DNA of 54,252 bases from a virus (lineage: Duplodnaviria; Heunggongvirae; Uroviricota; Caudoviricetes), in IMG/VR virus record IMGVR_UViG_3300035547_000249; one strand, given 5' to 3'. The notes under the pieces were generated by a model. That model worked only from the letters and a program-made list of their open reading frames with translations, ran no database searches and was not told the DNA's origin. The position numbers and the translations under genes were made by a program. Every line of letters begins with the position of its first letter. The stretch's first letter is position 1. Shown piece after piece: positions 865 to 17,257 of the stretch.

Positions 865-865
865 C

Positions 866-945: not shown

Positions 946-949
946 ACAT

Positions 950-1018: not shown

Positions 1019-1023
1019 CAAGC

Positions 1024-1101: not shown

Positions 1102-1136
1102 GATTTCTTCTAACGTTAAATGGAGGTGCTTATGAA

Positions 1137-1947: not shown

Positions 1948-1954
1948 CCAATGT

Positions 1955-2366: not shown

Positions 2367-2412
2367 CATTAAAAACCGTGCTCCGGTAGTTCAACTGGCA
2401 GAGCCACCGGCT

Positions 2413-3108
2413 TAATTAGTAAAAACCTAAGTAGTAATTTCGTATGAGGGATTGTGTAGTTCTGTGTGGCAATTAGCACATAATAGAATACATTTATCTG
2501 CCTCAGTATACAATTTATCAAGTGCACGATTAGAACAACTTCTCATGTCTAGTTTAAACTTTTTAGTTTTTTCCTCTACATGATGAAATGTCAGTACTGC
2601 TGAATTCTTACAGTATCCGCATTTCTGACATTTACCACCAAGGTATTTAATTAAGTCTAATCTTATTTTTCTACCTTTTTTGTTCTTTAATTCTTGATAG
2701 TTTTTGGATTTTAATCTTCCAAGCGACTTTTTATTTGTTTTTAATTTACACTTTTTTAGTCTATACATTGTCGCTGTTTGAGAAATTCCTATTTTATTAG
2801 CTATTTCTCTAGTAGATAAACCTTTATCTACTAAAGGTTTTAATTCATCATAAAAATTGTTCATAAAGATTTTCCTATATGGTTTTAACTTGATGGGCCA
2901 TAACTATACCTAAGTATTAAGTTCCTATTTAATATAAGGTTAGTTAATTGTATCTTGTCAAATTCGGGGAAACCTTAACAGGTAATGCTGATGGCAATCC
3001 CGAGCCAAGCCCGTAAGGGAAGGTGTAGAGACTATACGGCAAGGCCGAAAGGTAAGATATAGTCCAGACTACAAACCAGAAATGGGCAGTGAAAACTGTA
3101 GTGGTAAG
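2413..3108 (+). mobile_element. group I intron between U33 and C34, with an HNH gene in the P1 loop
   Basis: same core as the Leu intron; exon ggct pairs with ggcc at 2896-2899; terminal G3108. Confidence 0.9.
2427..2864 (-). CDS. intron-encoded HNH homing endonuclease with N-terminal HTH
   Basis: CQKC..FHH..LLCANCHTELH; antisense to the intron. Confidence 0.85.
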   Translation of the reverse strand: MNNFYDELKPLVDKGLSTREIANKIGISQTATMYRLKKCKLKTNKKSLGRLKSKNYQELKNKKGRKIRLDLIKYLGGKCQKCGYCKNSAVLTFHHVEEKTKKFKLDMRSCSNRALDKLYTEADKCILLCANCHTELHNPSYEITT

Positions 3109-3168
3109 CATAACCGGTCAGTTGTAGGTTCGAGTCCTACCCGGAGTACCAAAGAAAAGAAGGTAAAC

Positions 3169-3432
3169 ATGTATAGAATAAAGGTTCTTTATAGGAAAAA
3201 CCTAAAAATGAGTCCTGGCAAACTTGCAGCACAAACAGGTCATGCTGTGCTTGGTCTTCAACCAATTAAAGACACAAGTATAGTAGTTCTTGAAGCATCG
3301 GACAGAAAATTTTTCGAGAAGCTTGAGGAGTTGAAAGTAAGTGGAAAAGAACACCACACTGTCCGTGATGCTGGAAGAACAGAAGTTGAACCTGGAACAA
3401 TAACATGTGTAGCTTTCTTAGAGTATAAATAA
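3169..3432 (+). CDS. pth2: peptidyl-tRNA hydrolase, Pth2 type
   Basis: MSPGKLAAQTGHA and VRDAGRTEVEPGT motifs; start moved out of the tRNA exon. Confidence 0.85.
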   Translation: MYRIKVLYRKNLKMSPGKLAAQTGHAVLGLQPIKDTSIVVLEASDRKFFEKLEELKVSGKEHHTVRDAGRTEVEPGTITCVAFLEYK

Positions 3433-3544
3433 GTGATGTAAACGAACATAGGGGTCGTTGGATATCGGGAACAAATGGTACCAGACAAAATCCTGATGTA
3501 TCTGTCCTTTTGGTACGATGTAGGGCGTCACTTATATTAATTTA

Positions 3545-3815
3545 GTCCCTGTAGCTCAGCTGAATAGAGCAACGGCCTTCTAGTTAATACTGGGCCTCAT
3601 AGTGGAAACACTTTGAGTGTAAGTAGTCAAATTCGGGGAAACCTTAACAGTTAATGCTGATGGCAATCCCGAGCCAAGCCCGTAAGGGAAGGTGTAGAGA
3701 GCAGACGGCTACCACCTAAGTCAACAGATAAGGTGAAGGGGTGCTCCAAGGAGTAGAGAAATTTACACAAACTTGAAGCCGTAGGTCACAGGTTTGAATC
3801 CTGTCAGGGATACCA
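3545..3815 (+). tRNA. tRNA-Arg(UCU) split by a group I intron
   Basis: exons 3545-3581 and 3776-3815 join to acggc-CTTCTAA-gccgt; encoded CCA. Confidence 0.92.
3582..3775 (+). mobile_element. 194-nt group I intron between U36 and A37
   Basis: shared core; P1 U3581.G3592; P7 GAGCA/TGCTC; terminal G. Confidence 0.9.
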
Positions 3816-3886
3816 GGAGCTATAACCATCGGGGAAGGTGTCAGACTGTCGATCTGATAAGGCGGGTTCGAGTCCCGCTAGCTCCG
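3816..3886 (+). tRNA. tRNA-Asp(GUC)
   Basis: tcaga-CTGTCGA-tctga, G73; abuts the CCA of tRNA-Arg. Confidence 0.9.
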
Positions 3887-3909
3887 CAAATTAAAATCAG
3901 GAGTTTTAC

Positions 3910-4344
3910 ATGTTTAGTATAATCAAAAAGTACATTAGTGAAAGAAAGAAAAAGAAAGAAACTAAATTATATCGTTCAGGATTTGGATGGGCTATGGTAA
4001 GATACTATTGTGAAGGTCTTCCAATAGAAGAAATAGAAAGTTGGGTGCATTTATCTAAACAATTTTGTAATTATAATGAGTTTGATGAGGGCATTGAACA
4101 TGCCATTAAAATCATAAACGATATTAAATTAATTAAACAAAGGTATAATTTTATGAAAGAAAATATATATGATGTAAATTGGTCAAAAAAATATATAATG
4201 ACTGGTTCAATGCGAGTATCTGCCAAATCAAATGACGATGCTAATAGTAAAGTGTCAAAGGTGTTGGGCGATCTAGTTGGTTCTATGCAATTAACTGATG
4301 AAGATTCTGTTGAATCACATATAGTAGAAAAAAATTCTATATAA
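3910..4344 (+). CDS. hypothetical protein
   Basis: 144-aa ORF with AGGAG RBS. Confidence 0.6.
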   Translation: MFSIIKKYISERKKKKETKLYRSGFGWAMVRYYCEGLPIEEIESWVHLSKQFCNYNEFDEGIEHAIKIINDIKLIKQRYNFMKENIYDVNWSKKYIMTGSMRVSAKSNDDANSKVSKVLGDLVGSMQLTDEDSVESHIVEKNSI

Positions 4345-4936
4345 TAACTTGCCCGCATAACTCAGTGTGTAGAGTGCTTGCCTTACAAGCAAGAAGCCAT
4401 TGGTTCAAATCCAGTTGTGGGCACAAAAGTGTGTCCTTTGTAATATACCCATTATCAAATTCCCAGTGATGGTTTTTGCATAGTGCTATTAGGTTATTAA
4501 GTGAGTTTACTTCGATTATTTTTGTATTTTCTGGAAAATCTTTTATTCCAGTTATATGGCAAACATCAAAGTGCAAATCATACCCGCAAATAACACATTT
4601 CTTAGGTTTATCTGATTTAAGATAAAATCTGCGGGCATGATCTCTTATTTGTCTATAATTGTTTGCTGGCTGTTTTTTGTTTCTTGACAATATGTCTTTT
4701 ATTGTGGTAACATATAGCCAATCAGATCTTTTGTCTAAAGACTCTTTAATTCCTGAGTTTCTGCAGGATTTACAGAATTTATTTGATTTTGGTATGGGTG
4801 TATTACATGATTTACATACCCCTCTTGGTTTATTATTAAATTTTGCTGAATGTGATATACTACAAAATTTTCTGCCAATTGGAATTGTAATATTACAATA
4901 TTTACATTTGTTTATACCCATTTTTTTTGTCTCCAT
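4337..4936 (-). CDS. HNH endonuclease with Zn-finger repeats
   Basis: CxxC repeats and DVCH..NLIALCKNHHWEFD; start set at METKK; C-terminus reads antisense through tRNA-Val. Confidence 0.8.
   Translation of the reverse strand: METKKMGINKCKYCNITIPIGRKFCSISHSAKFNNKPRGVCKSCNTPIPKSNKFCKSCRNSGIKESLDKRSDWLYVTTIKDILSRNKKQPANNYRQIRDHARRFYLKSDKPKKCVICGYDLHFDVCHITGIKDFPENTKIIEVNSLNNLIALCKNHHWEFDNGYITKDTLLCPQLDLNQWLLACKASTLHTELCGQVII
4351..4423 (+). tRNA. tRNA-Val(UAC)
   Basis: cttgc-CTTACAA-gcaag, canonical arms. Confidence 0.93.
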
Positions 4937-5002
4937 GAAAAACAATATATTTTTAATATAACTACTAATATTAATATTACAATGGCTTATATAAAAAAAT
5001 AC

Positions 5003-5076
5003 AGACATGTAGCTCAGCCGGTTAGAGCACACGCCTTATAAGCGTGAGGTCAGCAGTTCGATCCTGCTCATGTCTA
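5003..5076 (+). tRNA. tRNA-Ile(UAU)
   Basis: cacgc-CTTATAA-gcgtg, canonical cloverleaf. Confidence 0.92.
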
Positions 5077-5196
5077 CAAGAAGTATCGTTGTCATGAAGT
5101 TTGAAAATCAATAAAAATTAAATTGACTATCATAGTCATGAAGTTTCAATTTTTCAAAAAAATAAATTGACATAATAAAATTGATGGGTATTTTAT

Positions 5197-5379
5197 ATGG
5201 TTAAATACAAGGTAAATGATTTTGTAGAACTGTTGGATGAGAAACCAAACAGTATCAATAAGGAAGCAAGAGTTAATAAGGTAGATGGTGATTATGTTTT
5301 TGTCAGTAATCTTAACATGCCTTTTATTGGAACTCTATGTAACAAAAAATTACATAAAAGTAAAGTAAAGAAAATATGA
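5197..5379 (+). CDS. hypothetical protein
   Basis: 60-aa ORF. Confidence 0.5.
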   Translation: MVKYKVNDFVELLDEKPNSINKEARVNKVDGDYVFVSNLNMPFIGTLCNKKLHKSKVKKI

Positions 5380-5469
5380 TGAGTTCAGGTTGGTTTTTTT
5401 GTTAAAATTTTCATATTGGTTCTCCACAGGTGGTACAGCTATTTTGTGTTGTACCACCATAAGATAAAT

Positions 5470-5544
5470 GCCCGTATAGCTGAGCTGGTTTAGCACAGCC
5501 CTTGTAAGGCTGGGACGGGGGTTCAAATCCCTCTGCGGGCTCCA
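5470..5544 (+). tRNA. tRNA-Thr(UGU)
   Basis: cagcc-CTTGTAA-ggctg; encoded CCA. Confidence 0.93.
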
Positions 5545-5571
5545 TTAAAATAAAATAGGAGATTATTAATT

Positions 5572-6279
5572 TTGAGTGATAAAAAAGTCAGTAAAACCCC
5601 ATGGGTTATGTGGTCTTTCGTTGTTGTAATTGTAATTTACATGGTTATTATGACTATGCAGTTTAAATCTGTTGATAATTTGAGTGATTTGAATGAACAC
5701 TATAAATACACAATGGAAAAATTAAAAACTGAAAATAAAAGACTCGGTGGGTATGAGGAAGAAGCTTTACAGTTAAGAAATGAAAACGATTCCTTATCAG
5801 AAAAGATGAAGTCATTAAAAGCAGTTAAAAGAAAAAATGAAGAACTGTCTGGTTTTATTATGTCTTTACAACCAAAACTGGACATTGAAGTTTCGAATAT
5901 TATCGCAGCAAAGATAATTGAACATGCAAATGCTTTTGGATTTCCTCCTTCTCTAATAGCTTCCTTGATGTATAGGGAGTCTTCATTTAACTTAATAGCT
6001 GTTAGTTCAGCTAAATGTGTTGGTTTGATGCAAGTTAATCCTGCAGCTCATACTGATAAAATAGAAGATATGGGGTTAGAATACCATAATTTATTTTCAA
6101 TTGATGAAAATATCAAACTTGGTTGCATGATACTCTATGAGTATTATAGTTCAGAAAAGGATATTAGAAAAGCATTGACAAGATATGTTGGTGGTTCGCA
6201 TGATAACTATGTTAATGATATTCTTTCCATGTATTCTAATTATCAGATAAACGAGTTCGGAAAAAACAAGGAACAATAA
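5572..6279 (+). CDS. membrane-anchored lytic transglycosylase (SLT domain)
   Basis: N-terminal TM helix, coiled coil, YRESSFN..AVSS..GLMQVN. Confidence 0.85.
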   Translation: MSDKKVSKTPWVMWSFVVVIVIYMVIMTMQFKSVDNLSDLNEHYKYTMEKLKTENKRLGGYEEEALQLRNENDSLSEKMKSLKAVKRKNEELSGFIMSLQPKLDIEVSNIIAAKIIEHANAFGFPPSLIASLMYRESSFNLIAVSSAKCVGLMQVNPAAHTDKIEDMGLEYHNLFSIDENIKLGCMILYEYYSSEKDIRKALTRYVGGSHDNYVNDILSMYSNYQINEFGKNKEQ

Positions 6280-6289
6280 GATAATCACA

Positions 6290-6377
6290 GGGGAATGTTC
6301 CAGGTAGGAGTCTGTAAAACTCTGGTCGCAAAATAATCTTGGTGGTTCGACGAGTGGTTCAATTCCATCATTCCCCA
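6290..6377 (+). tRNA. atypical tRNA-Tyr(GUA) with reduced D-arm
   Basis: ggggaat/attcccc, ggagt-CTGTAAA-actct; only ~10 nt in the D region, ~29-nt variable region. Confidence 0.6.
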
Positions 6378-6423
6378 CAGGAAAACAATGTAAATATATA
6401 TATATAATGAGAAAGATAATAAT

Positions 6424-6627
6424 ATGTATAAACCATATGAAGCAGTAATGGTTAACCCATTCTTCAGTAAAGTAACTTTTGAAGGAGATACCATTTTTAC
6501 ATATCTTTTAGATTACAGTGAAGCTAAATTACAAGCTAATCTTTTTAATAACATTTATGCTTTGGGGGTTATGAAAGCATGTAACTTGGCTGATAACAGA
6601 GAAGAGATACTAAAAATATTGAAATAA
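6424..6627 (+). CDS. hypothetical protein
   Basis: 67-aa ORF. Confidence 0.5.
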   Translation: MYKPYEAVMVNPFFSKVTFEGDTIFTYLLDYSEAKLQANLFNNIYALGVMKACNLADNREEILKILK

Positions 6628-6634
6628 AAAACAT

Positions 6635-6699
6635 AAAAGGACCGAAGATTGTAGTTTATCTATTTGGAGAAAACACTACAATTACTAACTTGTCCTTTT
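6635..6699 (+). ncRNA. novel RNA motif, free-standing copy C
   Basis: aaaaggac/gtcctttt, CGAA opposite ACTAACTT, gattgtagt/actacaatt, GTTTATC and AAAC. Confidence 0.7.
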
Positions 6700-6718
6700 A
6701 AATAATTTTTGAGGTAAT

Positions 6719-6970
6719 ATGAGACTTCCAGAAATAGTTAAGGAAATAAATGAAGTTGAAAAATTAAGGTTAAAGTTAAATAGCTTATTCGAAAAAGAAT
6801 CTAGTGTGTGTCCACATGTATCTTTTAGAGAAAGTTCGTTGTTTGAGTGGCAAACAGAAAAAGTTTGTAACAGAGAGGACAATCTATCTATAGGAACGCA
6901 TTATACGACGTTTTGTAAGCCAGAGTTTTGTCCTATGCAGGTAGAAAATTTGGTTGGTATGGGAAAATAA
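6719..6970 (+). CDS. hypothetical protein
   Basis: 83-aa ORF with GAGG RBS. Confidence 0.55.
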   Translation: MRLPEIVKEINEVEKLRLKLNSLFEKESSVCPHVSFRESSLFEWQTEKVCNREDNLSIGTHYTTFCKPEFCPMQVENLVGMGK

Positions 6971-6996
6971 ACACATACTACTTACAAAATTAATAC

Positions 6997-7025
6997 TTGA
7001 CAAACTATTTAACTAACCTTATTAT
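6997..7025 (+). promoter_or_regulatory. sigma70-like promoter
   Basis: TTGACA-17 bp-TATTAT; predicted +1 falls at the start of motif copy D. Confidence 0.7.
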
Positions 7026-7030
7026 TAATA

Positions 7031-7109
7031 CAGGACCGAAGATATTGGTTTATCATATAACAGTTTACAAAAACAGTCCAAGACAAGACCATTATCATAA
7101 CTAGTCCTG
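7031..7109 (+). ncRNA. novel RNA motif, free-standing copy D
   Basis: caggac/gtcctg, CGAA opposite ATAACTA, gatattggtt/gaccattatc, GTTTATC; 5' leader of tRNA-Gly. Confidence 0.72.
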
Positions 7110-7113
7110 ATAT

Positions 7114-7185
7114 GCGAGCATAACTCAATTGGTAGAGTGCTGGCCTTCCAAGCCAGTGACCTCGGTTCGATTCCGGGTGCTCGCT
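7114..7185 (+). tRNA. tRNA-Gly(UCC)
   Basis: ctggc-CTTCCAA-gccag, U73. Confidence 0.95.
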
Positions 7186-7216
7186 CAAGTAACCATTTAA
7201 TGTGAGGAATACCCAT

Positions 7217-7927
7217 ATGGGCAAAAGAATATATAAGCAAATGATTTGGTGGCCAGTAATGCCTATATGTGATAATCAACTTAAAGATGTTAGAAAAGAA
7301 GATTTACTTTTCGATGGTTTATATCGGTCATGTAATACTTATAGGGGTGGTGGGGGCTATGACGAATTTGGAAACATATATGAAAGACGTTTTGGAATTA
7401 CTCCAGAACCTGTACAGTTTGTAGTTCAGCTTAAAGGATGTCCGTTAAATTGTCCATACTGTTACGTTACGCCTGATGGTATTCATGGCAATTCAGTAAT
7501 GGTAAATACAAATAAACTATTAGATGATTATGAATCAACCGGGCTAAAAGTGTTTCATCTAATGGGCGGAGCACCAGCTATTTATTTAGAACACTGGAAA
7601 AATCTTACAAGAAATTTTAAGAAAGACCAAATATTTCATAGTGATTTTCTGCTGGTGGAAAACTTATATAAACCTTCTTGGTTGATAGACCTTCCAGGCC
7701 TGCATGCGGTATCTTTTAAGGAAAAATACCTTTATAATAAGGATCAACTTGGAATTATGTGGAAGAATTTAAGAACACTTATAGATTGTAAAGTAAACTT
7801 TTATATCACTTTTACAGGAAGAGATGAGTTTAGTCATAAAATATATGATGAGTTTGGTCCCAAAGTATTAGAAGATAGTTTTTTAATTAAGATTCAGAAA
7901 TATAAGGCCCTGTGGACTAATGGTTAG
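7217..7927 (+). CDS. radical SAM-like protein
   Basis: CPLNCPYC (CxxxCxxC) and a GG motif (LMGGAP). Confidence 0.65.
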   Translation: MGKRIYKQMIWWPVMPICDNQLKDVRKEDLLFDGLYRSCNTYRGGGGYDEFGNIYERRFGITPEPVQFVVQLKGCPLNCPYCYVTPDGIHGNSVMVNTNKLLDDYESTGLKVFHLMGGAPAIYLEHWKNLTRNFKKDQIFHSDFLLVENLYKPSWLIDLPGLHAVSFKEKYLYNKDQLGIMWKNLRTLIDCKVNFYITFTGRDEFSHKIYDEFGPKVLEDSFLIKIQKYKALWTNG

Positions 7928-7978
7928 GTCACAACCCTTTCAAGGTTGTAGTTGCCGGTTCAAGCCCGGCCAGGGTCA
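7906..7978 (+). tRNA. tRNA-Glu(UUC)
   Basis: caacc-CTTTCAA-ggttg; overlaps the last codons of the upstream ORF. Confidence 0.93.
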
Positions 7979-8075
7979 CATGGACTTAGTGTTGTATGAC
8001 ACGAGAGATATAATAAACTAACCTCCTTATAAGTGAGAGGGTATTATACCCTTAGAGTTTATTAGGAGGAAGTTT

Positions 8076-8504
8076 ATGAAAAGATCTACGAAGTGGAAGG
8101 GTGATTTGGCAGAACAGATAGTGGTGGTAGAGGCAATGAAAATGGGTATAGATGTTTCTATTCCTGTGGGAGATAGACTAACATATGATCTTATATTTGA
8201 TGTAAATAGTTCTTTGTTAAAGATACAGGTAAAATGTGCATGGTTTGATAAATGTAGTAATAATTATATAACAGACACTAGGATGTGTAAAACCAATAGA
8301 AAACATTATAGGTTTGAGAAATACTCCAATAATGATTTTGATTTCGCTATTATAGTGGTAATGGAAAACAACTCCTTCTACATTATGCCTTCCGATGTGT
8401 TCAATTTATACAAATCCAGTGTAACACTGTCTGAATTTGAAACCAGGCAAAGATCTCCTAGGTCATTGCCATATAAAAATGCTTGGCACTTGCTAGATGT
8501 ATAA
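8076..8504 (+). CDS. free-standing PD-(D/E)XK homing endonuclease (I-Ssp6803I-like)
   Basis: KGDLAE..VSIPVGD..YDLIFD..KIQVK. Confidence 0.8.
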   Translation: MKRSTKWKGDLAEQIVVVEAMKMGIDVSIPVGDRLTYDLIFDVNSSLLKIQVKCAWFDKCSNNYITDTRMCKTNRKHYRFEKYSNNDFDFAIIVVMENNSFYIMPSDVFNLYKSSVTLSEFETRQRSPRSLPYKNAWHLLDV

Positions 8505-8531
8505 CTAATATATAGTTGTAGAAAAAATTAA

Positions 8532-8602
8532 TGCAGCGTAGAGTATTGGTAACTCGGGGGTCTCATAAGCCTCACATATAGGTTCGAATCCTATCGCTGC
8601 AA
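8532..8602 (+). tRNA. tRNA-Met(CAU), initiator-like
   Basis: G-rich anticodon stem, loop CTCATAA, fMet-like D arm (TAGAGT..GGTAACTCG). Confidence 0.85.
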
Positions 8603-8612
8603 AGGTGATAAT

Positions 8613-8747
8613 ATGAAGAAAAATAAAAGAAATAAAACACCATTTGAAAGGTTTAGGAAACCAATTCCAAAACCAGGTTCTTTTTTCAAAGACAGAAGCA
8701 AGTATAATAGGAAAAAGAAACATAAAAAAGACAACGGAGAGGTGTAA
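8613..8747 (+). CDS. small basic protein (44 aa), possibly ArfA-like
   Basis: AGGTGA RBS; ends FKDRSKYNRKKKHK; family assignment is tentative. Confidence 0.45.
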   Translation: MKKNKRNKTPFERFRKPIPKPGSFFKDRSKYNRKKKHKKDNGEV

Positions 8748-8796
8748 CTCATTGGAAGAGAGGCCGGCAATGTGGGTTCGAATCCTACCACCTCTT
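8738..8796 (+). ncRNA. tRNA-like RNA lacking the anticodon arm
   Basis: agaggtg/cacctct, D arm actc-attggaa-gaga, T arm gtggg-TTCGAAT-cctac; only ggccggcaat between D and T arms. Confidence 0.75.
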
Positions 8797-8819
8797 CATT
8801 AAACAATAATACACGACCA

Positions 8820-8941
8820 GGGGTCGTAGCTCAGTTGGTAGAGCAGCCGACAAACAACCTTTTATGATACCTAGTCAAAAAGACCGAAGTACGAGGTTAA
8901 TCATAATCAGTATGTCGTAGGTTCGAATCCTACCGACCCCT
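8820..8941 (+). tRNA. tRNA(CAU) with a 49-nt insertion at 32/33 (motif copy E)
   Basis: removing 8852-8900 gives a canonical 73-nt cloverleaf with loop CTCATAA. Confidence 0.8.
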
Positions 8942-8961
8942 TCAAACAATAAAGGTGACAT

Positions 8962-9339
8962 ATGGACATTGAATTACAGAATAAACTCTTTGATAAATAC
9001 CCAAAACTCTTCAGACAAAGAACACTAAATCCAGAAGACACATGTATGTGTTTTGGAATAGAGTGTGGGGATGGTTGGTTTTGGTTATTATATGAGTTGT
9101 GTGACTTCATACAAACATATGTAGACAATAACAAAGAAGAACAACCAGAAGCTATTCAGGTTAAGGAGAAATTTGGTGGTCTAAGATTTTATACTACCCC
9201 TACAACCGGAAAAATTGATGGTGCCATATGGTTTGCTGAAAGCTTATCTATGAGTATATGTGAGGTGTGTGGCTCAAGGGAAGATGTGACACAGACAAAG
9301 GGATGGGTAAGGTCTTTGTGTAAAAAGTGTATTAAGTAA
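8962..9339 (+). CDS. conserved phage hypothetical protein
   Basis: ECGDGWF..QVKEKFGGLRFY..C-x2-C pattern. Confidence 0.75.
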   Translation: MDIELQNKLFDKYPKLFRQRTLNPEDTCMCFGIECGDGWFWLLYELCDFIQTYVDNNKEEQPEAIQVKEKFGGLRFYTTPTTGKIDGAIWFAESLSMSICEVCGSREDVTQTKGWVRSLCKKCIK

Positions 9340-9343
9340 TTAT

Positions 9344-9430
9344 TCTGGAGTACTCTAACTGGCAAGAGGCTTGGCTGTTAACCAAGTGTATTCCCGAGAG
9401 GGTATGCAGGTTCAAACCCTGCCTCCAGAG
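9344..9430 (+). tRNA. tRNA-Asn(GUU) with a long variable arm
   Basis: cttgg-CTGTTAA-ccaag followed by a 19-nt variable hairpin; G73. Confidence 0.85.
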
Positions 9431-9468
9431 CAAGGCTTTTTTTTATTAATTTATACAAAACAATAAAT

Positions 9469-9978
9469 TCAGGATAGGCTTAGTTTAAATTTTTTTACAT
9501 AATCATCTACTTGCTTTTTAATTAGATATCTATAGTTACTATGCCAATATCTATGATGGGTAGGACAAAGAGGCACAAAGTTATTTTTATTATTATTATT
9601 CTTATTACCATCATAATGATGTGCTTCTACTATTAAGGATTCAGAACAAATAATACATTTTTTCTCATGGTATGCAAAACAAACTTTTCGGGCTCCAAGC
9701 TCTGATATAGAAGAGTCCATTATAGAATAATTTTCTGCAGATTTCCAATTTGGATGATCTTTGCCAGTACGAAAATAAGTATTAGAGCAGCTATAGCTAC
9801 AAGTAGTATTAGATTTGTAGTTCTTAATAGGTTTTTCACAAATAGGACACAATATGATATTGTTAGGATTTAAATAACAATGATTCTCATGTTTAGATAA
9901 ACAAGAAGAACTGGTAATATGTCCACAAAATCGACAACTTTTTTTAACATAATTACCAGTTATAATAAATTTTCCCAT
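9469..9978 (-). CDS. HNH endonuclease
   Basis: CIIC..EAHHYDGN..NFVPLCPTHH. Confidence 0.85.
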   Translation of the reverse strand: MGKFIITGNYVKKSCRFCGHITSSSCLSKHENHCYLNPNNIILCPICEKPIKNYKSNTTCSYSCSNTYFRTGKDHPNWKSAENYSIMDSSISELGARKVCFAYHEKKCIICSESLIVEAHHYDGNKNNNNKNNFVPLCPTHHRYWHSNYRYLIKKQVDDYVKKFKLSLS

Positions 9979-10028
9979 AATTAACTACCTTCCTACTAAT
10001 AACGAGGTTAGTTAATTTGAAAAAATTA

Positions 10029-10104
10029 CTAGCGGTGGCCAAGTCTGGTAAGGCGCCGGTTTTGGATACCGGAGACTTCAGAGGTTCGAATCCTCTCCGC
10101 TAGA
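10029..10104 (+). tRNA. tRNA-Pro(UGG)
   Basis: ccggt-TTTGGAT-accgg. Confidence 0.93.
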
Positions 10105-10127
10105 CAAGTATTAAAAGGAACAATAAA

Positions 10128-11063
10128 ATGGATTTTAAAAAAACTATCATTGACTACCTCGATTCTATAAAAAACGATTTTAATGAGTTAAGAATAGAAA
10201 ACAGGAAAGATAATATTTCCAAAACTCTTGAAAGATTAAAAGATTATAAAGAAAAAATTATCTCAGGAGAGTGGACTATAGATGACTTCTTGGAAGCATT
10301 TTTCGGGCATCTTAAAGTAGAGTCAATTTTAACACTTAATTCTGTATCTTTGTTCGATGAGCCAGCTATTTGGGCTATTAGAAGAAAGGTTAGACATGGT
10401 AATTATGATCGTTGGTCTGACATATACCGTGTATTGAAGGATAAATGTTCTAAGACAGAAGCTATCAAACTTGCTGAGAAAATGGAAGATATATACACTA
10501 GAGAATTTACTGAGGTACCAAGTATTAAAGTCCCCAGCGGAAAATTATTGTTTAGTAATTATTTTCTTAATAATGAAGAAGGCGATAATAAAACCTATGC
10601 ATTTAATGTTCCTGAAGATTTAAAATATGATGACTGGTTCTCACTAAATAGTAAATTTGGTAGACAGAACATGATGACATATCTTGCTAAAGAGTACAAT
10701 ATTGGTTACTGTCAATTAGGAAATAGAACAGTGGGAGTATATAAAGTAGATAATGACCGAATTTATTTAGCCCCCACATCTTATTACGACGATGTAACTG
10801 ATAGAGATATTGAACCTACCAAAAAGTGGGAATATTTAGGAGACATTGATTGCTCCGTTTGGCGAGTAGAATTTATTGATGAAATACTTTTTGATAGTAA
10901 TAATAACATTGATAAGGATTTTTTCGAAGAAGAGGATAATGTAATTGTAGAGGTTACTCCAGGTACTTGGACTGCACATAACTATTATCACTGTAAATCA
11001 GATAAGAGTTTGGTAGAAAAGTTTGGGTATCCTGTATGGATTGAGATAAATAGAATTAAATAA
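10128..11063 (+). CDS. hypothetical protein
   Basis: 311-aa ORF, no recognised motif. Confidence 0.75.
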   Translation: MDFKKTIIDYLDSIKNDFNELRIENRKDNISKTLERLKDYKEKIISGEWTIDDFLEAFFGHLKVESILTLNSVSLFDEPAIWAIRRKVRHGNYDRWSDIYRVLKDKCSKTEAIKLAEKMEDIYTREFTEVPSIKVPSGKLLFSNYFLNNEEGDNKTYAFNVPEDLKYDDWFSLNSKFGRQNMMTYLAKEYNIGYCQLGNRTVGVYKVDNDRIYLAPTSYYDDVTDRDIEPTKKWEYLGDIDCSVWRVEFIDEILFDSNNNIDKDFFEEEDNVIVEVTPGTWTAHNYYHCKSDKSLVEKFGYPVWIEINRIK

Positions 11064-11214
11064 CAGGTACTCATTCAGTACCAAAAGCAGTATGAAACTG
11101 GGCATTTCATATTGACATTTTGTTGCGTTAGTGGGCAACAAAACTCCTTTTGTTAGGTGATTGGTTAGTGTTCTGTTCATGACAAAAAGTGGGCAGAACA
11201 CAAAAGAGAATAAA

Positions 11215-11336
11215 GGGCTCGGTGTCCGTGGGGACTAAACAACTTTCGGTAATAACTAGTTGTGTTTACACAGCCGAGTATTGGAAGTTTATCAAATGCA
11301 AATTGAAAAACTTAGGTTCGACTCCTACCGAGTCCA
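11215..11336 (+). tRNA. tRNA-Cys(GCA)-like gene with a 55-nt insertion (motif copy F)
   Basis: removing 11237-11291 completes the ttcaa/ttgaa stem around ATGCAAA; acceptor gggctcg/cgagtcc; short D-loop; A73 is atypical for Cys. Confidence 0.65.
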
Positions 11337-11351
11337 CAAGAAGGAATTATT

Positions 11352-11639
11352 ATGGATGAAAAATTAAGAACAAAAGTAACTTTCATAAAGGACAAATACC
11401 ACATCAGGTTGCTAGAAGATGATTTGTTAGTAAATGAAATGGCATGCAGGGAAAAGATAGATATAGGGTGGTGTTGTTCTTATATGTTAAGATGGTATGA
11501 TAAACTTGGCGGAAACTCTGTTATGGCTATCAGGTCAAGAGACAGGTGGAGTAATAAGACCTCTAATCCGATGGGAAAGATATGGTATGAAAAAGATCTT
11601 AGACCAAAAGGGTGTATTCAAACTGGATCTACACGGTAA
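11352..11639 (+). CDS. hypothetical protein
   Basis: 95-aa ORF. Confidence 0.6.
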   Translation: MDEKLRTKVTFIKDKYHIRLLEDDLLVNEMACREKIDIGWCCSYMLRWYDKLGGNSVMAIRSRDRWSNKTSNPMGKIWYEKDLRPKGCIQTGSTR

Positions 11640-11829
11640 GAGTCATGCTAATGCGAGAAATAATACAATAAGATTTATCGAAGAGCACTGGGATGATGAC
11701 TCTGAACTGGAGATAATAACTGGACACAGCACCATTATGAAAGGAATAGTTCTAAATGTTCTAGATGAATACAGTCTTCCGTATCAAATAAGTTATATGA
11801 ATACAGGAAAAATAATTGCATGGACATGA
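11587..11829 (+). CDS. stand-alone Smr-domain protein
   Basis: KLDLHG..LEIITGHS; start set at MKKILDQ. Confidence 0.8.
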   Translation: MKKILDQKGVFKLDLHGKSHANARNNTIRFIEEHWDDDSELEIITGHSTIMKGIVLNVLDEYSLPYQISYMNTGKIIAWT

Positions 11830-12035
11830 ATATAATAAAAGTGCCTATTCTGAAAAGATTTGTACATAATGGTAGAAGGTTTGGAGAAACAGATGATGGT
11901 AAGGCTAAATGGTATAGAAGATTTGAAGCTGAAACCTTTAGCCCTGCTCCAGACGGAATCAATGATTGGACATGTGTTAGTGTCTTAGAAGTTATAAAAC
12001 ATTTCATAAAAGGAACCAGAATAAGGTGGACTTAA
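11820..12035 (+). CDS. hypothetical protein
   Basis: 71-aa ORF. Confidence 0.5.
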   Translation: MDMNIIKVPILKRFVHNGRRFGETDDGKAKWYRRFEAETFSPAPDGINDWTCVSVLEVIKHFIKGTRIRWT

Positions 12036-12039
12036 GACA

Positions 12040-12375
12040 ATGAAATATACAATAGAAATAACAGAAAAACAAAAGGAAGTAATTGTAAGGGCTCTGGAGA
12101 CTTATGTAAGATTAATGATAGGTCAAATAGATATAGTTGTAGGTGACAACTTTAAGGAATTATCGTGGGACAATAAAAAAATTATACATGAGACAGCAAG
12201 AAAATTTATCTTTAAAGAATACCCATCTAACGGCGGCCCCGGAATAGGACACCCTGATACAGATGTAAAAGCAAAGATTGCTTATGAGATGGGCGATATT
12301 CTAAAGGGTAAGTTGCCGTTGGAACTATCTGGAGAACCTTTTCCTGTTGTAAATATTACCTCTTTAAAAGCATAA
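12040..12375 (+). CDS. hypothetical protein
   Basis: 111-aa ORF. Confidence 0.65.
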   Translation: MKYTIEITEKQKEVIVRALETYVRLMIGQIDIVVGDNFKELSWDNKKIIHETARKFIFKEYPSNGGPGIGHPDTDVKAKIAYEMGDILKGKLPLELSGEPFPVVNITSLKA

Positions 12376-12382
12376 GAAATAT

Positions 12383-12467
12383 GGAAGGGTCGTCAGTATG
12401 GTGCGACAACGAGTCTTGAAAACTCGGGGGTGTAAAAGCTTTGCAGGTTCGAATCCTGTCCCTTCCG
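12383..12467 (+). tRNA. tRNA-Ser(UGA)
   Basis: loop CTTGAAA, long variable arm, G73. Confidence 0.92.
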
Positions 12468-12500
12468 CAAGTTAATAATTTTAAATAAAGAGGTGTAAAC

Positions 12501-12833
12501 ATGAAAAAGAAAACAATTTGGCAAGAAAGCAAGGCATATCCAAGTCTATATCATCAGATAGTAAAAAGATTTGGACCTTTTAAGTCGTGGCCCAACAGAA
12601 GTTACCCAGCCAACAAAGGCGAGTTTGAGAAATTCTGTAGAAGTTTCGCAGACGTTGTTGGGGCTAAATCTGGCAGAGCAGTTGAAAATCAGATACGATG
12701 GGCTACCACCAAGCAATCAAAAATAGGTAACTCACATATGATGACTTATCTATCCAATAAAATGGCAGCTTTGGCTGCTGGATTTATAGATAGTAAGTAT
12801 GTACCTACTGATATGAAGTGCAATTACAAATAA
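12501..12833 (+). CDS. hypothetical protein
   Basis: 110-aa ORF with GAGGTG RBS. Confidence 0.65.
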   Translation: MKKKTIWQESKAYPSLYHQIVKRFGPFKSWPNRSYPANKGEFEKFCRSFADVVGAKSGRAVENQIRWATTKQSKIGNSHMMTYLSNKMAALAAGFIDSKYVPTDMKCNYK

Positions 12834-12849
12834 CACTAATAAATTGTTA

Positions 12850-13152
12850 TGAATGGTGGGAGGTTGGCTTAGAGGCAGCCAGACGAAAGTCTGCTGGAAA
12901 TTGATATCCAGTACCTATAATGAGTGGAACGACCTACCTACCGCCGGTTGTTTTGCCTAACTGACTTGGCATCGGTCTTAAGGTTAGGGTACCAGTTAAG
13001 TTCGAAGCAAGCCACCTTCGCAGGTGGATGTTATAGACACGGGGTAGCTCCCCTAAATACTGCTGAGGTAGGAGATGCTTATGATAGTGTGATGGCACCC
13101 CAGAAATGGTAAGGCCGGATCTTCCTTTGGCGTAGCAGCACACCACCATTCA
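12850..13152 (+). ncRNA. ~300-nt structured RNA with 23S rRNA H43/H44-like ends
   Basis: closing stem tgaatggtg/caccattca; GGAGGTTGGCTTAGAGGCAGCCA and GCGTAGCAGCACAC; many internal hairpins; GC-rich in AT-rich DNA. Confidence 0.8.
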
Positions 13153-13246
13153 AACAATAACCTATTAATATAGGAGGAGATATGAAGATTTTTTCATATG
13201 TAATGGATATCTTCTAAGTTTTTTAAATAAACTTAGGAGGTATTAA

Positions 13247-13609
13247 ATGAAATACAAAGACAAAGTTCAAAAAAAACATAAGGCAAATCGTCTTGTTGAG
13301 GAAATAGACCCTTGGGGTTATAGGTTATCATACAAGTGGGTACCAGATGGATATCGTTATTATGGTCCAGTATTCAGATTTAGATATGATCCTGTACCTG
13401 GAACTGGTGGTTCTGGTAAAGTACATATAAGAGGGTGCTACAGGACTATTAGAACTACTCAAGAAAGAAGATGGTCACTTGCTCATAAAGATTATGTTAG
13501 GGGCAAGAGAAGTTACAGAATGCTTCCAGATGCTTGGGACGATATTCATCATGCAAGGAGAGAAAAAGGTTGGAAAAGGACAAAGAAAAAGAAACAATGG
13601 ATGAGGTGA
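13247..13609 (+). CDS. conserved basic hypothetical protein
   Basis: RTTQERR..RGKRS..LPDAWDD..KGWK pattern; AGGAGG RBS. Confidence 0.7.
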   Translation: MKYKDKVQKKHKANRLVEEIDPWGYRLSYKWVPDGYRYYGPVFRFRYDPVPGTGGSGKVHIRGCYRTIRTTQERRWSLAHKDYVRGKRSYRMLPDAWDDIHHARREKGWKRTKKKKQWMR

Positions 13610-13694
13610 TATATGACTGACTGGTTTACTTCTGATTGACATTTTTAACTAACCTCCTAATAAATGTAAGTATCAAATTTATTAGGAGAAAAAC

Positions 13695-14411
13695 ATGAAA
13701 ACAAAATATAATTGTACTAATTGTAAAAAAGAATTCAAAAGATATGTCTCTACAGTAAGAAATCCAGAAGCAGTGTTTTGTAGTAGGAAGTGTAAGAGTG
13801 ATTGGCAAGTAGGTAAATTGAGTGGAAAGAATAACCCAAACTATCGTCACGGTAAGTGGGTTGAAGGAAAAAAATCCATATGTGAATGTGGCAATGAAAA
13901 AGACCCTAGATCCTCTAAATGTTATAATTGTAATAGATGCTCTTTTAAAAAGGGGTCTATTAATATAGTTGCTGGCACCAAATCCGTAGTTACAGATGAG
14001 GTAATAAAAAAGATAGTCACCGAAAGTAAATCATTTTTAGAAGTTAGTGATAAACTTAATATATCTAGATATTGGGCAGTTAAAAGAACGAAGCAATTAA
14101 ATTTAGATATTTCACACTTCGTAAAATGTGTTAATAGACCTTATTTACCAGAAGAAGTTTTCAAAGAAGAAAGTAAGGTAAGCAATAGTATTGTCAAGAA
14201 ATTACTTCTAGATGAAAAAGAAGAAAAATGTGAATGTTGTGGTCTAGACAATGTCTGGTTGGAAAAACCACTAACAATAGAACTTCATCATAAGAATGGA
14301 ATTAACAATGATCATAGAAAAGAAAATTTAATCTTACTATGCCCTAACTGCCATTCACAAACTGATACACATAGAGGAAGAAATACTATAACAAAAAGGA
14401 GTCAATTATAA
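13695..14411 (+). CDS. HNH endonuclease
   Basis: CECC..ELHHKNG..NLILLCPNCHSQT. Confidence 0.88.
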   Translation: MKTKYNCTNCKKEFKRYVSTVRNPEAVFCSRKCKSDWQVGKLSGKNNPNYRHGKWVEGKKSICECGNEKDPRSSKCYNCNRCSFKKGSINIVAGTKSVVTDEVIKKIVTESKSFLEVSDKLNISRYWAVKRTKQLNLDISHFVKCVNRPYLPEEVFKEESKVSNSIVKKLLLDEKEEKCECCGLDNVWLEKPLTIELHHKNGINNDHRKENLILLCPNCHSQTDTHRGRNTITKRSQL

Positions 14412-14920
14412 TGGATTGGTTCAGTGCAGATCACCACTTCTTCCACCCGGCCATCATAGGTTATGCTGGAAGGCCGTTTAGAACTGAACAGGAAATGAGA
14501 AATATTATAGTCAAAAGGCACAATGAAGTAGTAGGACCAAAAGATACAACATACTTCATAGGTGATGTTGCAATGATAGGAAGACACGAACTTTCCAAAC
14601 TCAGACCCTTGCTTGAGAAAATGAATGGTACAAAACACCTTATTCTTGGAAATCATGATGAAGGCAGACCATTCACCTATGAGAGGTTTGGATTTACTAC
14701 AGTCCACACCGCTCTACAGTACAATGAAAATATTATTCTAAGGCATGACCCTGCTGCATGTATTGTCATGCCTGAAAAGTTGTGGTTAGTGGGGCACGTT
14801 CATAATGTGTTCCATTATACCACCGAACCAATAAAATGTTTTAACGTCGGTGTTGACGTTAATGATTTCTATCCTGTCAATTTAGAACAGATAGAAAAAA
14901 TTATGAATATTAAGATTTAA
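14411..14920 (+). CDS. calcineurin-like metallophosphoesterase
   Basis: ADHHFFH, GDV, GNHD, GHVH motifs. Confidence 0.88.
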   Translation: MDWFSADHHFFHPAIIGYAGRPFRTEQEMRNIIVKRHNEVVGPKDTTYFIGDVAMIGRHELSKLRPLLEKMNGTKHLILGNHDEGRPFTYERFGFTTVHTALQYNENIILRHDPAACIVMPEKLWLVGHVHNVFHYTTEPIKCFNVGVDVNDFYPVNLEQIEKIMNIKI

Positions 14921-14931
14921 GGAGAGTTGTA

Positions 14932-15243
14932 ATGATTTATGTAAAAGTTGACGGTAAGGAACATGGTATCACTTTTCTTCATGAGAAGGAAGAGACAGAG
15001 GTAGTAAACAAGAACGGTAAAAAGATTAATATGAGCGTACCTTTTAGAACCACATGCGCCATCATTGATCCAGAAAGCAAAGCAACAATTGCTACTGGTG
15101 TTGCAAAGGTTGATTCCAGAGACAATTTCACCTACAACAAAGGTAGAAAGTTTTCTCTTAAGAATGCCCTACTTGCAGCAAATATGCACAGGCACCAAAG
15201 AACTCAGCTCTGGAATCAGTTTTTTGAAAAGGTTAAATATTAA
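14932..15243 (+). CDS. hypothetical protein
   Basis: 103-aa ORF with AGGAG RBS. Confidence 0.65.
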   Translation: MIYVKVDGKEHGITFLHEKEETEVVNKNGKKINMSVPFRTTCAIIDPESKATIATGVAKVDSRDNFTYNKGRKFSLKNALLAANMHRHQRTQLWNQFFEKVKY

Positions 15244-15252
15244 CAAATAACA

Positions 15253-15341
15253 GGAAGGTTGGCCGAGAGGCTTAAGGCACTCGCCTGCTAAGCGAGTGGG
15301 GTCGTTAAACACCCCCGAGAGTTCGAATCCCTCACCTTCCG
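15253..15341 (+). tRNA. tRNA-Ser(GCU)
   Basis: ctcgc-CTGCTAA-gcgag, long variable arm. Confidence 0.95.
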
Positions 15342-15347
15342 CAAGAT

Positions 15348-15420
15348 GGGGTTGTAGCTTAATTGGGAGAGCATCTGCTTTGCAAGCAGAAGGGTATGGG
15401 TTCAATTCCCTTCAACTCCA
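15348..15420 (+). tRNA. tRNA-Ala(UGC)
   Basis: loop TTTGCAA, G3.U70. Confidence 0.93.
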
Positions 15421-15446
15421 CAAGTACATACTGGAGGAAAATCTGA

Positions 15447-15980
15447 ATGGAAAACACTATTTTATTGAACAGCGATTATAATTTCATCAGTATTATAAAC
15501 TGGAAAAGAGCAATTCTTTTGGTTATAAAAGAAAAAGTAGAAGTATTAAAAGGTAGTGATACTGTAATAAAAAATAGTGATGGTTCTATTAAAATTCAAG
15601 TACCAAGAATAGTCAGATTGGTTAGAATGGTTAAGACAATTTATAAATCTAGTGTACCATTCAACAAAAAAAGTGTTATATACAGAGATAAAGGTATTTG
15701 TCAATACTGTGGTACTTCAATAGAAAAAGACATAACCATAGACCATGTTCTGCCAAAATCAAAAGGTGGAATATCTAGCTTTACTAATTGTGTAGTATGC
15801 TGTAAACCATGCAACAACAAAAAAGGCGATAAACTATTAAAAGATAGCGGCATGAAATTGTTAAAAGAACCAAGAACTCCAACAGTAATAGAGTTTATGC
15901 TAATTAAACTTAATAAAGCAAAGAGAGATGAGAGTAAATGGTTCGAAGATTTAGAAAAATACTTTAATCAAGAAGGATAA
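15447..15980 (+). CDS. HNH endonuclease (McrA-like)
   Basis: LLNSDY..WKRAI; CQYC..TIDHVLPKSKGG..NCVVCCKPCNNKK. Confidence 0.88.
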   Translation: MENTILLNSDYNFISIINWKRAILLVIKEKVEVLKGSDTVIKNSDGSIKIQVPRIVRLVRMVKTIYKSSVPFNKKSVIYRDKGICQYCGTSIEKDITIDHVLPKSKGGISSFTNCVVCCKPCNNKKGDKLLKDSGMKLLKEPRTPTVIEFMLIKLNKAKRDESKWFEDLEKYFNQEG

Positions 15981-15985
15981 ATATC

Positions 15986-16246
15986 ATGGAAAAAACTGAA
16001 GCTGTATGCGATATACATGATGTTTTGGATACCTATAATAATATAGTAGAAACATGTGACAAACTTCCAGAATGTTTGATAGTAAATAGTAAAGATGAGA
16101 CAGTATTGTCTAGTGTATTAGGTGATCAGTACATCAAAAGCTCTGCTAACGATATGTATTCAAATAATATACTTGGTTACTTTAGAGATATTCAGGTCAA
16201 ATCTGGTATATTGTCTAGTTGTAAAGCCAAGTTTATGTTAAATTAG
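15986..16246 (+). CDS. hypothetical protein
   Basis: 86-aa ORF. Confidence 0.55.
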   Translation: MEKTEAVCDIHDVLDTYNNIVETCDKLPECLIVNSKDETVLSSVLGDQYIKSSANDMYSNNILGYFRDIQVKSGILSSCKAKFMLN

Positions 16247-16407
16247 TATGTTTAAGATTTCTGATAAGATAAAAGATAAGTTTGCAAATACAGTTATAAC
16301 ATCTTTTTCTTTTACGGCAGCAGCCACTTTATTGGTAAAAATAGGATGTAATCCAAATCTATTATCTGCTGTTTGTATATCAGGATTAACTTTAATAATT
16401 ATTATAT

Positions 16408-16482
16408 GGTGGCGGTAACTCAGTGGTAGAGAGCTGGATTGTGGCTCCAGCAGCACGGGTTCGAATCCCGTCCGCCACCCCA
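16408..16482 (+). tRNA. tRNA-His(GUG)
   Basis: G-1, C73, loop TTGTGGC, encoded CCA. Confidence 0.95.
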
Positions 16483-16691
16483 AGGATCTATCATGAACTC
16501 TGGCCATTTAATTAAATTAAGACCATGTGTATGAGTAGGGATAGCCAAACCAGATTTCATGATGATGTAGATAGTAGTGTATTCATTGGTTCGGAGGACC
16601 GAAATCATTAGATATTCCTCCGTGTGAGGCTGTTAAACACAGAATAAAACGATCAAAAAAATTTCATTATATGGGTATACTACTATCTCAT

Positions 16692-16762
16692 AGGGATGTT
16701 AGCTAACGGAAAGCTCCCAGCCTTTGACGCTGGTCATCCAGGTTCGAGTCCTGGCATCCCTG
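16692..16762 (+). tRNA. tRNA-Gln(UUG)
   Basis: ccagc-CTTTGAC-gctgg, G73. Confidence 0.92.
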
Positions 16763-16786
16763 CAAGAAAAATATAAGGAGGTGAAT

Positions 16787-17257
16787 ATGTCAAACAGTAT
16801 GAGATTGCTGGAAAAGGCGATAGTAATAGCAACTAATGCTCATATGGGCCAGTTTGATAGGGCTGGCGCACCATATATTCTTCACCCTCTCAGAGTTATG
16901 ATGAGGATGTCTACTATAGAAAGTAAGATAGTAGCAGTATGTCATGACCTAATTGAAGATACATATATAACACTAAAAGACCTCATGAATGAAGAATTTA
17001 CAGATGACATAATATTCTCTATTGATTGTATGACTAAGTGCAAAGGTGAGGAATACAACTCCTACCTTGATCGTGTTATAAGTGACAAGATGGCATCGGA
17101 ATGTAAGCTTGAAGATATGAGAGACAACTCAAATATATACAGGCTTAATAAAATAAAAGATAAGCACCTAAAAATGATAGAAAAATATCATAAAGGAGCA
17201 TTAAGAATACTTGAAGCTTGGCCTGAGTTTAATATTAGGTTTAGGCTTATAGACTGA
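16787..17257 (+). CDS. HD-domain hydrolase, RelA/SpoT (small alarmone hydrolase) type
   Basis: AI..A..AH.GQ.DRAGAPYILHPLRV, HDLIED, KLEDM.DN. Confidence 0.8.
   Translation: MSNSMRLLEKAIVIATNAHMGQFDRAGAPYILHPLRVMMRMSTIESKIVAVCHDLIEDTYITLKDLMNEEFTDDIIFSIDCMTKCKGEEYNSYLDRVISDKMASECKLEDMRDNSNIYRLNKIKDKHLKMIEKYHKGALRILEAWPEFNIRFRLID

Follow-up and report, generated by a model that had tools for sequence, protein, structure and literature searches.

Do the protein-coding genes which lie among the transfer RNA (tRNA) genes of a giant phage form one coordinated module for maintaining translation, or have they gathered there separately? We addressed this question in a stretch of 54,252 nucleotides (hereafter the window) from the IMG/VR virus record IMGVR_UViG_3300035547_000249 (Caudoviricetes), in which a tRNA island holds genes for a peptidyl-tRNA hydrolase (Pth2), a stand-alone Smr protein and a small HD hydrolase (Table 1). 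The window is part of a 79-kb record, and we take the phage to be a giant one because CheckV estimated this record to be only ~29% complete. The original prediction had seen in the island a translation-rescue and anti-stringent toolkit, acting as a coordinated module against defences which cleave tRNA or stall ribosomes. We found that the gene set is best read as loose and repeatedly assembled, and not as specifically "anti-stringent", and that the new element within it is a large family of stand-alone mini-Smr proteins which is tied to phage tRNA arrays.

The mini-Smr protein of the window consists of an Smr domain only, and it scored below the Pfam gathering threshold for that domain (PF01713: 22.2 vs 25.7 bits). 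It belongs to a family of proteins of 76–80 amino acids (aa), in which a precomputed PF01713 hit was available for 3/12 relatives. The AlphaFold2 model of the protein (predicted local distance difference test score, pLDDT, of 86) was matched by Foldseek most closely to the structures 3fau, 2zqe, 3qd7, 4och and 2d9i (template modelling (TM) score 0.64–0.74, probability 1.00), and the Smr domains which it matched include those of human N4BP2, MutS2 and E. coli YdaL; the best Foldseek E value was 2.7e-3 and none was ≤ 0.001. The catalytic DxH motif, as defined for SmrB (bioRxiv 10.1101/2021.08.16.456513), reads L-D14-L-H16 in this protein, and D14-L-H16 is kept in all 11 relatives which cover the region. 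The call of a stand-alone Smr protein was thus borne out by fold and DxH motif despite the sub-threshold Pfam score, and the modelled fold together with the motif suggests that mini-Smr is an RNA endonuclease. In both respects it resembles the Smr domains of E. coli SmrB, Cue2, NONU-1 and MutS2. A profile search for the family returned 480 clusters at 50% identity, mostly of proteins of 70–80 aa. A tblastn search of mini-Smr against cultured phages gave zero matches, and in a literature search we found no description of a tie to phage tRNA arrays for the known Smr proteins.

For each protein family we determined how far its genes lie from the nearest tRNA, and we scored the IMG/VR loci for the presence of a tRNA within 2 kb. 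Such a tRNA was found at 6/7 mini-Smr loci, 21/80 Pth2 loci, 6/31 loci of the Aph-like HD family and 5/49 loci of the family of the phosphoesterase at 14411. Compared with the phosphoesterase family, mini-Smr was enriched near tRNAs (Fisher: P = 9e-5), where it should be noted that the enrichment P values ignore relatedness and the general richness in accessory genes around tRNA islands. When distinct loci from all sources were considered, mini-Smr lay ≤ 1 kb from a tRNA in 14 of the 16 informative ones, and the distance was usually no more than 150 bp. Members which were drawn randomly from the profile search of 480 clusters are part of this count. Among the relatives (labelled here by G or L and a number), the Smr gene of G018 is 46 bp from a phage transfer-messenger RNA (tmRNA), a tmRNA is present in the same island in G005 and G007, and in G007 the Smr gene, a full-length Pth2 and the tmRNA are found within 11 kb. 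On an 80-kb contig (L207, positions 1–10222) one tRNA array contains mini-Smr together with a CCA-adding enzyme, an RNA ligase, a radical SAM protein and a peptide deformylase (Pdf). It is possible, if rather unlikely in our estimation, that these ~75-aa stand-alone proteins represent a large undescribed phage family dedicated to tRNA arrays, which would serve either as the viral counterpart of SmrB-to-tmRNA rescue or as a nuclease processing tRNA-open reading frame (ORF) precursors, including the odd short inserts in the tRNAs of this phage. The first of these two roles is considered because mini-Smr is often found beside phage tmRNA, Pth2, CCA-adding enzyme or RNA ligase. The family is also a minimal, easily expressed candidate nuclease of the Smr fold with a clear genomic association.

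The tmRNAs which we located in mini-Smr-bearing tRNA islands were at L034 5265–5591, L019 7781–8156 and G007:C1:37263–37659, and a tmRNA was seen in 3/6 Smr-bearing records vs 0/7 Smr-less records (Fisher: P = 0.07). The tRNA array of L207 also contains a four-gene NAD salvage set, and its radical SAM gene had no detectable homology to the one at 7202–7927 in the window.

The HD hydrolase had been predicted to be a RelA/SpoT-type enzyme acting on nucleotides of the (p)ppGpp type. That it is an HD hydrolase was confirmed, with matches to RelA/SpoT hydrolase domains at E = 1e-10 to 1e-11 only, but the (p)ppGpp-type assignment did not hold: the best match was to Aph1, a "(p)ppApp hydrolase" (PDB 7smg; E = 6.9e-30, ~42% identity over residues 1–137). 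Residues H19, H33, H53, D54, E57, D58, D110 and N114 were invariant in a comparison of HD enzymes. Aph1 hydrolyses (p)ppApp with no detectable (p)ppGpp activity, and six residues mark its family: D24, R96, D116, R119, K133 and Y134 (PMC10083569). Five of the six (D24, R96, R119, K133 and Y134) are kept in the window's enzyme, and the copies in other giant phages carry the same Aph signature. Judged by its residues, the enzyme is most likely an adenosine 3'-pyrophosphohydrolase and not of the (p)ppGpp type; (p)ppGpp is an unlikely substrate because five of the six (p)ppApp-specific residues are kept. An anti-stringent role, in which the enzyme would degrade host (p)ppGpp and so block the stringent response during infection, is very improbable. 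It would agree with the homology to RelA/SpoT hydrolase domains and with the annotation of homologues as ppGpp pyrophosphohydrolase in many phage records, but Aph1 is by far the best match and five of its six specificity residues are kept both here and in other jumbo-phage copies, so that the term is probably wrong in detail.

The predicted specificity would instead fit toxSAS-type defences, that is, toxins which make (p)ppApp, and by analogy with PaSpo it may also fit the repair of tRNA itself. The toxSAS toxins are neutralised by PaSpo of Salmonella phage SSU5, an enzyme which takes off the 3'-pyrophosphate that FaRel2 installs on tRNA (bioRxiv 10.1101/2024.07.05.602228; PMC9712102). Like the window's enzyme, PaSpo (SSU5_099) is a phage-encoded single-domain RelA/SpoT homologue (RSH) hydrolase, but the two are only 27% identical over 128 aa and PaSpo lacks D24, R119 and K133 of the Aph signature. 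Aph1 itself, the enzyme of a Bacteroides caccae prophage (7SMG; PMC10083569), is close in size (149 vs 156 aa) and shares the HD catalytic residues, whereas the window's enzyme belongs to a lytic-type giant phage, where its gene is the last one of a tRNA island and has no neighbouring MuF-Apk toxin. In most of the large (jumbo) contigs examined, the HD gene was found in the island or within ~2 kb of it (G004, G006, G010 at 57 bp, G014, G015, G016 and G017); with the window's lineage collapsed and chance expectation assumed to be roughly 15%, this gave P ~6e-4. A hydrolase of the Aph type next to tRNAs is a direct and testable candidate for reversing tRNA pyrophosphorylation by toxSAS enzymes (CapRel or FaRel2-type) or for destroying (p)ppApp.

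The predicted Pth2 at 3169 held up in both profile and structure comparisons. Its Pfam score was 53.6 bits against a cut-off of 23 (PF01981), and it matched archaeal Pth2 structures by sequence; the NCBIfam equivalog cut-offs were not reached because of its short length. In Foldseek the AlphaFold2 model, which was built from an alignment of relatives (pLDDT 90.8), had Pth2 proteins as all of its top 14 PDB hits (TM 0.73–0.83). Across 13 mini-Pth2 sequences, comprising that of the window and 12 relatives of 84–89 aa from large phage contigs, K18, Q22, H25, D67, G69 and T71 were invariant. In the GK..AQ..HA and D.G.T motifs we take the Lys and the Asp to be catalytic, as in S. solfataricus Pth2. 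Archaeal and eukaryotic Pth2 (PF01981; 1xty, 3erj, 1q7s) have the same fold, and their GK..AQ..HA and D.G.TE motifs are kept in the phage form, which is shorter (87 vs ~115–120 aa) and lacks an internal segment and the C-terminal part. It therefore does not match the full-length domain (~115 aa) and covers positions 5–97 of the 115 in the profile, with an internal gap. An intron-bearing tRNA ends (...CCA) ~17 nt before the start of the gene, whose Shine-Dalgarno sequence is AAGGT, and in G001, G007, G013 and G014 Pth2 also lies between tRNAs.

We did not count a Pth2-like ORF of G004, which scored 20.4 bits and contains an in-frame TAG. Suppressor tRNA(CUA) genes and in-frame TAG codons in Pth2-like ORFs were seen in relatives (L015 3554–3629; L019 13055–13130; L034 8605–8677; G004:C1:75731–75910; G010:C1:127573–127767), a pattern which suggests that TAG is recoded in related phages; in the window itself no suppressor tRNA was seen.

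To compare gene order we used relatives which had been collected via each protein. The genomes were therefore chosen for carrying one of the genes, and their rates of co-occurrence are not readable as frequencies. The close relative L023 shares the order Smr–phosphoesterase–HD with the window, and G006 keeps this order in an expanded form (Smr at 140.4 kb, phosphoesterase at ~147.9 kb and HD at 159.5 kb), while G004 keeps the phosphoesterase and the HD gene, with no Smr in the part of G004 examined. These three and the window are one lineage. The identity between the window and L023 is mosaic (HD 95.5%, HNH 94%, ORF 13247 92%, Smr 65% and phosphoesterase 66%), and the HNH gene at 13695–14411 is absent from L023, which together points to gene-level exchange within the island.

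Several observations weigh against the idea that these genes were brought together to maintain translation. tRNA islands are insertion hot spots, and co-location alone is weak evidence. Outside the window's lineage there is no conserved arrangement, with the genes 4–85 kb apart or missing, and because of this the claim of a coordinated operon fails. In G006, Pth2 is at 55 kb, ~85 kb away from its island, while Smr is found at 140 kb and HD at 159 kb, and in G001 and G014 ~21–22 kb separate Pth2 from HD; some complete genomes, G013 and G015 among them, are without one or two families. When the phosphoesterase family was taken as the reference, the enrichment of Pth2 near tRNAs was weak (P = 0.04) and that of the HD family was absent (P = 0.32), and only 2/12 of the closest mini-Pth2 relatives adjoin tRNAs. 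Within the 79-kb record, which is ~29% of the genome, we found neither an RNA ligase (PF09414/Rnl2-type) nor a RelA_SpoT synthetase, the latter being a possible toxin partner of the HD enzyme; its absence from the record is a further difference from Aph1, as is the sixth Aph residue, D116, which is N in the window's enzyme. Compared with SmrB, Cue2, NONU-1 and the Smr domain of MutS2, mini-Smr is only 80 aa long, has no KOW or MutS modules, and has a GxG loop which reads GxS (G46-H-S48). With 9 residues before strand 1 it also lacks the N-terminal hook which SmrB uses for binding to the ribosome at uS2 (bioRxiv 10.1101/2021.08.16.456513).

These points raise the possibility of incidental co-location, where the island is a recombination hot spot rich in homing endonucleases and introns, and unrelated accessory genes act independently. 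The HD enzyme would then serve in immunity to (p)ppApp toxins or in nucleotide metabolism, Smr would be a DNA-nicking or selfish endonuclease, and the phosphoesterases would act on DNA or nucleotides. MutS2 Smr domains do nick DNA. The 16-kb island contains five HNH genes, one PD-(D/E)XK gene and three group I introns, and both the mosaic identity to L023 (95% for HD, 65% for Smr) and the variation of gene content and order among relatives are what such a history would leave. The absence of a nearby tRNA from 25/31 of the Aph-like HD loci, mostly in smaller and probably temperate phages, and the rarity of the phosphoesterase family near tRNAs point the same way. We nevertheless regard incidental co-location as an unlikely explanation for the whole: the association of mini-Smr with tRNAs at 14/16 loci, among members which are only ~45% identical, is too consistent for random accretion, the theme of Pth2, tmRNA, CCA-adding enzyme, RNA ligase and Pdf recurs in unrelated islands (G007, L207), and an 80-aa Smr domain has no DNA-targeting module of the homing-endonuclease kind.

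We lean, with moderate confidence, towards the reading that the tRNA island has gathered separately acquired translation-maintenance genes, which are probably co-expressed with the tRNAs and do not form a fixed operon. All of the named genes share the strand of the tRNAs, and Shine-Dalgarno sequences directly follow tRNAs. A gene for a CCA-adding enzyme is found 3.6 kb upstream on the same strand, and a strong terminator-like hairpin at 19817–19836 ends the + strand block. What survives of the predicted module is therefore a set of translation and nucleotide-signal genes whose tRNA island follows a gene for a CCA-adding enzyme, and whose homologues recur in or beside the islands of other giant phages; what does not survive is a single module, as synteny and conserved order were confined to the window's own lineage.

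From what the genes are, the folds of their products, the conservation of catalytic residues and the genomic associations, we infer activities and targets for the island proteins as follows. Mini-Pth2 would free tRNA from dropped-off or stranded peptidyl-tRNA, and the CCA-adding enzyme encoded just upstream would repair tRNA 3' ends. The Aph1-type HD enzyme would strip the 3'-pyrophosphate off adenosine nucleotides, with (p)ppApp from toxSAS or Tas1-type toxins as a likely substrate; by analogy with the phage small alarmone hydrolase PaSpo, the pyrophosphorylated A76 of tRNA CCA ends may be a further target. Mini-Smr would act as an RNA endonuclease on or near ribosomes or on tRNA-array transcripts, and in those relatives where a phage tmRNA is its neighbour, this tmRNA would rescue the ribosomes left on mRNA cut by mini-Smr. 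Phage tRNA genes are known to circumvent defences which cleave tRNA, among them PARIS and retrons. If it is true that the proteins between the tRNAs repair or protect translation, the tRNA island would be a wider anti-defence and translation-maintenance locus, beyond codon supply.

Some of these activities could also be needed for reasons internal to the island. If RNase P and RNase Z processing of the packed tRNA-ORF precursors truncates mRNAs and strands ribosomes, then Pth2, mini-Smr and the tmRNA of the relatives would clear them as housekeeping and not as counter-defence. ORFs in the island do abut tRNAs (2–25 nt). The stop codons of the ORF at 8613–8747 (overlap at 8738–8747) and of the radical SAM ORF at 7202–7927 (overlap at 7906–7927) are inside the downstream tRNA-like element and tRNA-Glu, respectively, and because of this non-stop mRNAs would result if RNase P cut at the 5' end of the tRNA; the sharing of islands by phage tmRNAs and mini-Smr would also be expected. 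We consider this explanation improbable, as the HD hydrolase fits it badly, host tmRNA and Pth are normally enough, and the window showed no more than two such stop-codon overlaps.

The concept of Pth2 and an HD hydrolase in giant phages is already published, and for these two genes the window provides confirmation. Iyer, Anantharaman, Krishnan, Burroughs and Aravind (2021, PMC7824862) reported PTH2, HD-alarmone phosphodiesterases and CCA-adding enzymes from jumbo phages, which they read as serving ribosome rescue (including the clearing of peptidyl-tRNA by Pth2), tRNA repair and defence against alarmone-based immunity. Here the HD enzyme is specifically of the Aph1 type and Pth2 is shortened to 84–89 aa; the word "Smr" is absent from the text of that survey, and embedding in tRNA arrays is not described in the passages which we consulted.

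Table 1 Positions of the features discussed, numbered along the window.
Feature	Position	Strand	Basis or context
tRNA island	782–16763	+	17 ARAGORN tRNAs, extra Rfam tRNA hits, 3 group I introns, HNH and PD-(D/E)XK endonuclease genes
Mini-Pth2, peptidyl-tRNA hydrolase by family, 87 aa	3169–3432	+	PF01981, Pth2 fold, invariant motif residues
Lys/Arg-rich ORF, 44 aa, "ArfA-like" candidate (unsupported)	8613–8747	+	Good Shine-Dalgarno sequence; stop codon inside tRNA-like element
tRNA-like element without anticodon arm, 59 nt	8738–8796	+	Rfam tRNA 34 bits, E 8e-4
Mini-Smr, Smr domain only, 80 aa	11587–11829	+	AlphaFold2/Foldseek fold, DxH motif
Structured RNA candidate, ~300 nt	12850–13152	+	5' part matches 23S rRNA H43 hairpin, 18/19 nt
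Metallophosphoesterase, 169 aa	14411–14920	+	phrog_547 E 1e-33; 1xm7 E 2e-8
Aph1-type small HD hydrolase, 156 aa, last island gene	16787–17257	+	7smg match; 24 nt after tRNA-Gln, preceded by AAGGAGGT
Second metallophosphoesterase, 240 aa, outside island	19008–19730	+	Pfam Metallophos 67 bits, phrog_1649; followed by the hairpin

Both of the phosphoesterases which had been predicted are real, but the second lies outside the interval of 3169–17257 in which it had been placed. The closest solved relative of the first is the uncharacterised Aquifex protein aq_1665, and its metal-binding motifs were invariant in an alignment of relatives (A4). A link of the two enzymes to translation was not found, with 5/49 loci near tRNAs and no ligase in the 79-kb record. 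We also considered whether the first could be an RNA-repair phosphoesterase of the Pnkp type and rejected this, given that no PF09414 ligase was found in the record (29% of the genome) and that the nearest structure is uncharacterised.

The endonuclease genes of the island stand amid the tRNAs together with genes for an SLT lytic transglycosylase, a radical SAM protein and many small ORFs. Extra Rfam tRNA matches include the 59-nt element and a tRNA with a long insert at 8820–8941. The three group I introns (1979–2284, 2910–3089 and 3569–3768, at the Rfam gathering score) are all within 1.9 kb and apparently inside tRNA genes which were not called by ARAGORN, and Pth2 is located between the second and the third. 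The radical SAM ORF (CPLNCPYC motif) lies between tRNA-Gly and tRNA-Glu and has only weak similarity to NrdG and QueE; on this basis its product may modify tRNA or nucleotides. The mini-Smr gene overlaps the 3' end of an ORF at 11352–11639 (phrog_12201) by 53 nt, and the corresponding overlap in L023 is 56 nt. A conserved partner ORF upstream of Smr was rejected, as this ORF is common only to the window and its close relative L023, and other Smr loci have unrelated short upstream ORFs. A megablast search of the region against 50,697 phage records gave zero matches, so that no close cultured relatives are at hand, and a promoter scan was uninformative (82 sites vs 83 expected).

While Pth2, Smr, the HD enzyme and the phosphoesterases were supported by profile or structure comparisons, the basic peptide at 8613, which had been tentatively predicted to be ArfA-like, was rejected as ArfA on profile, BLASTP and conservation tests. 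The ArfA model PF03889 gave no hit at E ≤ 10 across the whole record, searches with the Pfam and NCBIfam libraries were likewise without ArfA, and BLASTP against E. coli ArfA was not significant (E = 0.063, on an unrelated segment). Among 5.8 billion proteins the only homologue was the identical sequence from the same phage, tblastn gave no hits in ~200 related loci, and the peptide is absent from the L023 contig, which begins ~370 bases upstream of the neighbouring insert-bearing tRNA. Residual signals were a DUF7230 score below the cut-off (21.6 < 27 bits) and an ArfA cluster at rank 27 in a language-model comparison; a literature search for DUF7230 found no mention. The peptide is like ArfA in being small and basic, in having a Y-x-R-K-x-K-H patch which resembles ArfA residues 38–44, and in the possible removal of its stop codon by RNA processing, which recalls the regulation of arfA.

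Both of the predicted RNA elements were found. The tRNA-like element which lacks an anticodon arm exists, and no copy of it was seen in the relatives fetched. For the ~300-nt RNA, described in the original prediction as a mimic of the ribosomal GTPase centre, the 18/19 match to E. coli 23S 1059–1077 (H43) was confirmed and was the top 23S match among the window's 179 tiles. This RNA matched no Rfam family at E ≤ 1, tmRNA and RNase P included. Conservation of this RNA in L023 is 98%, and in G006 conservation was seen at its 5' and 3' ends (relative loci L023 2104–2374 and L150 9214–9519). Directly downstream of it is a very basic protein of 120 aa (13247–13609, phrog_12793), for which family and atlas searches gave nothing; it is 92% conserved in L023, and its homologue in G005 is also found between tRNAs.

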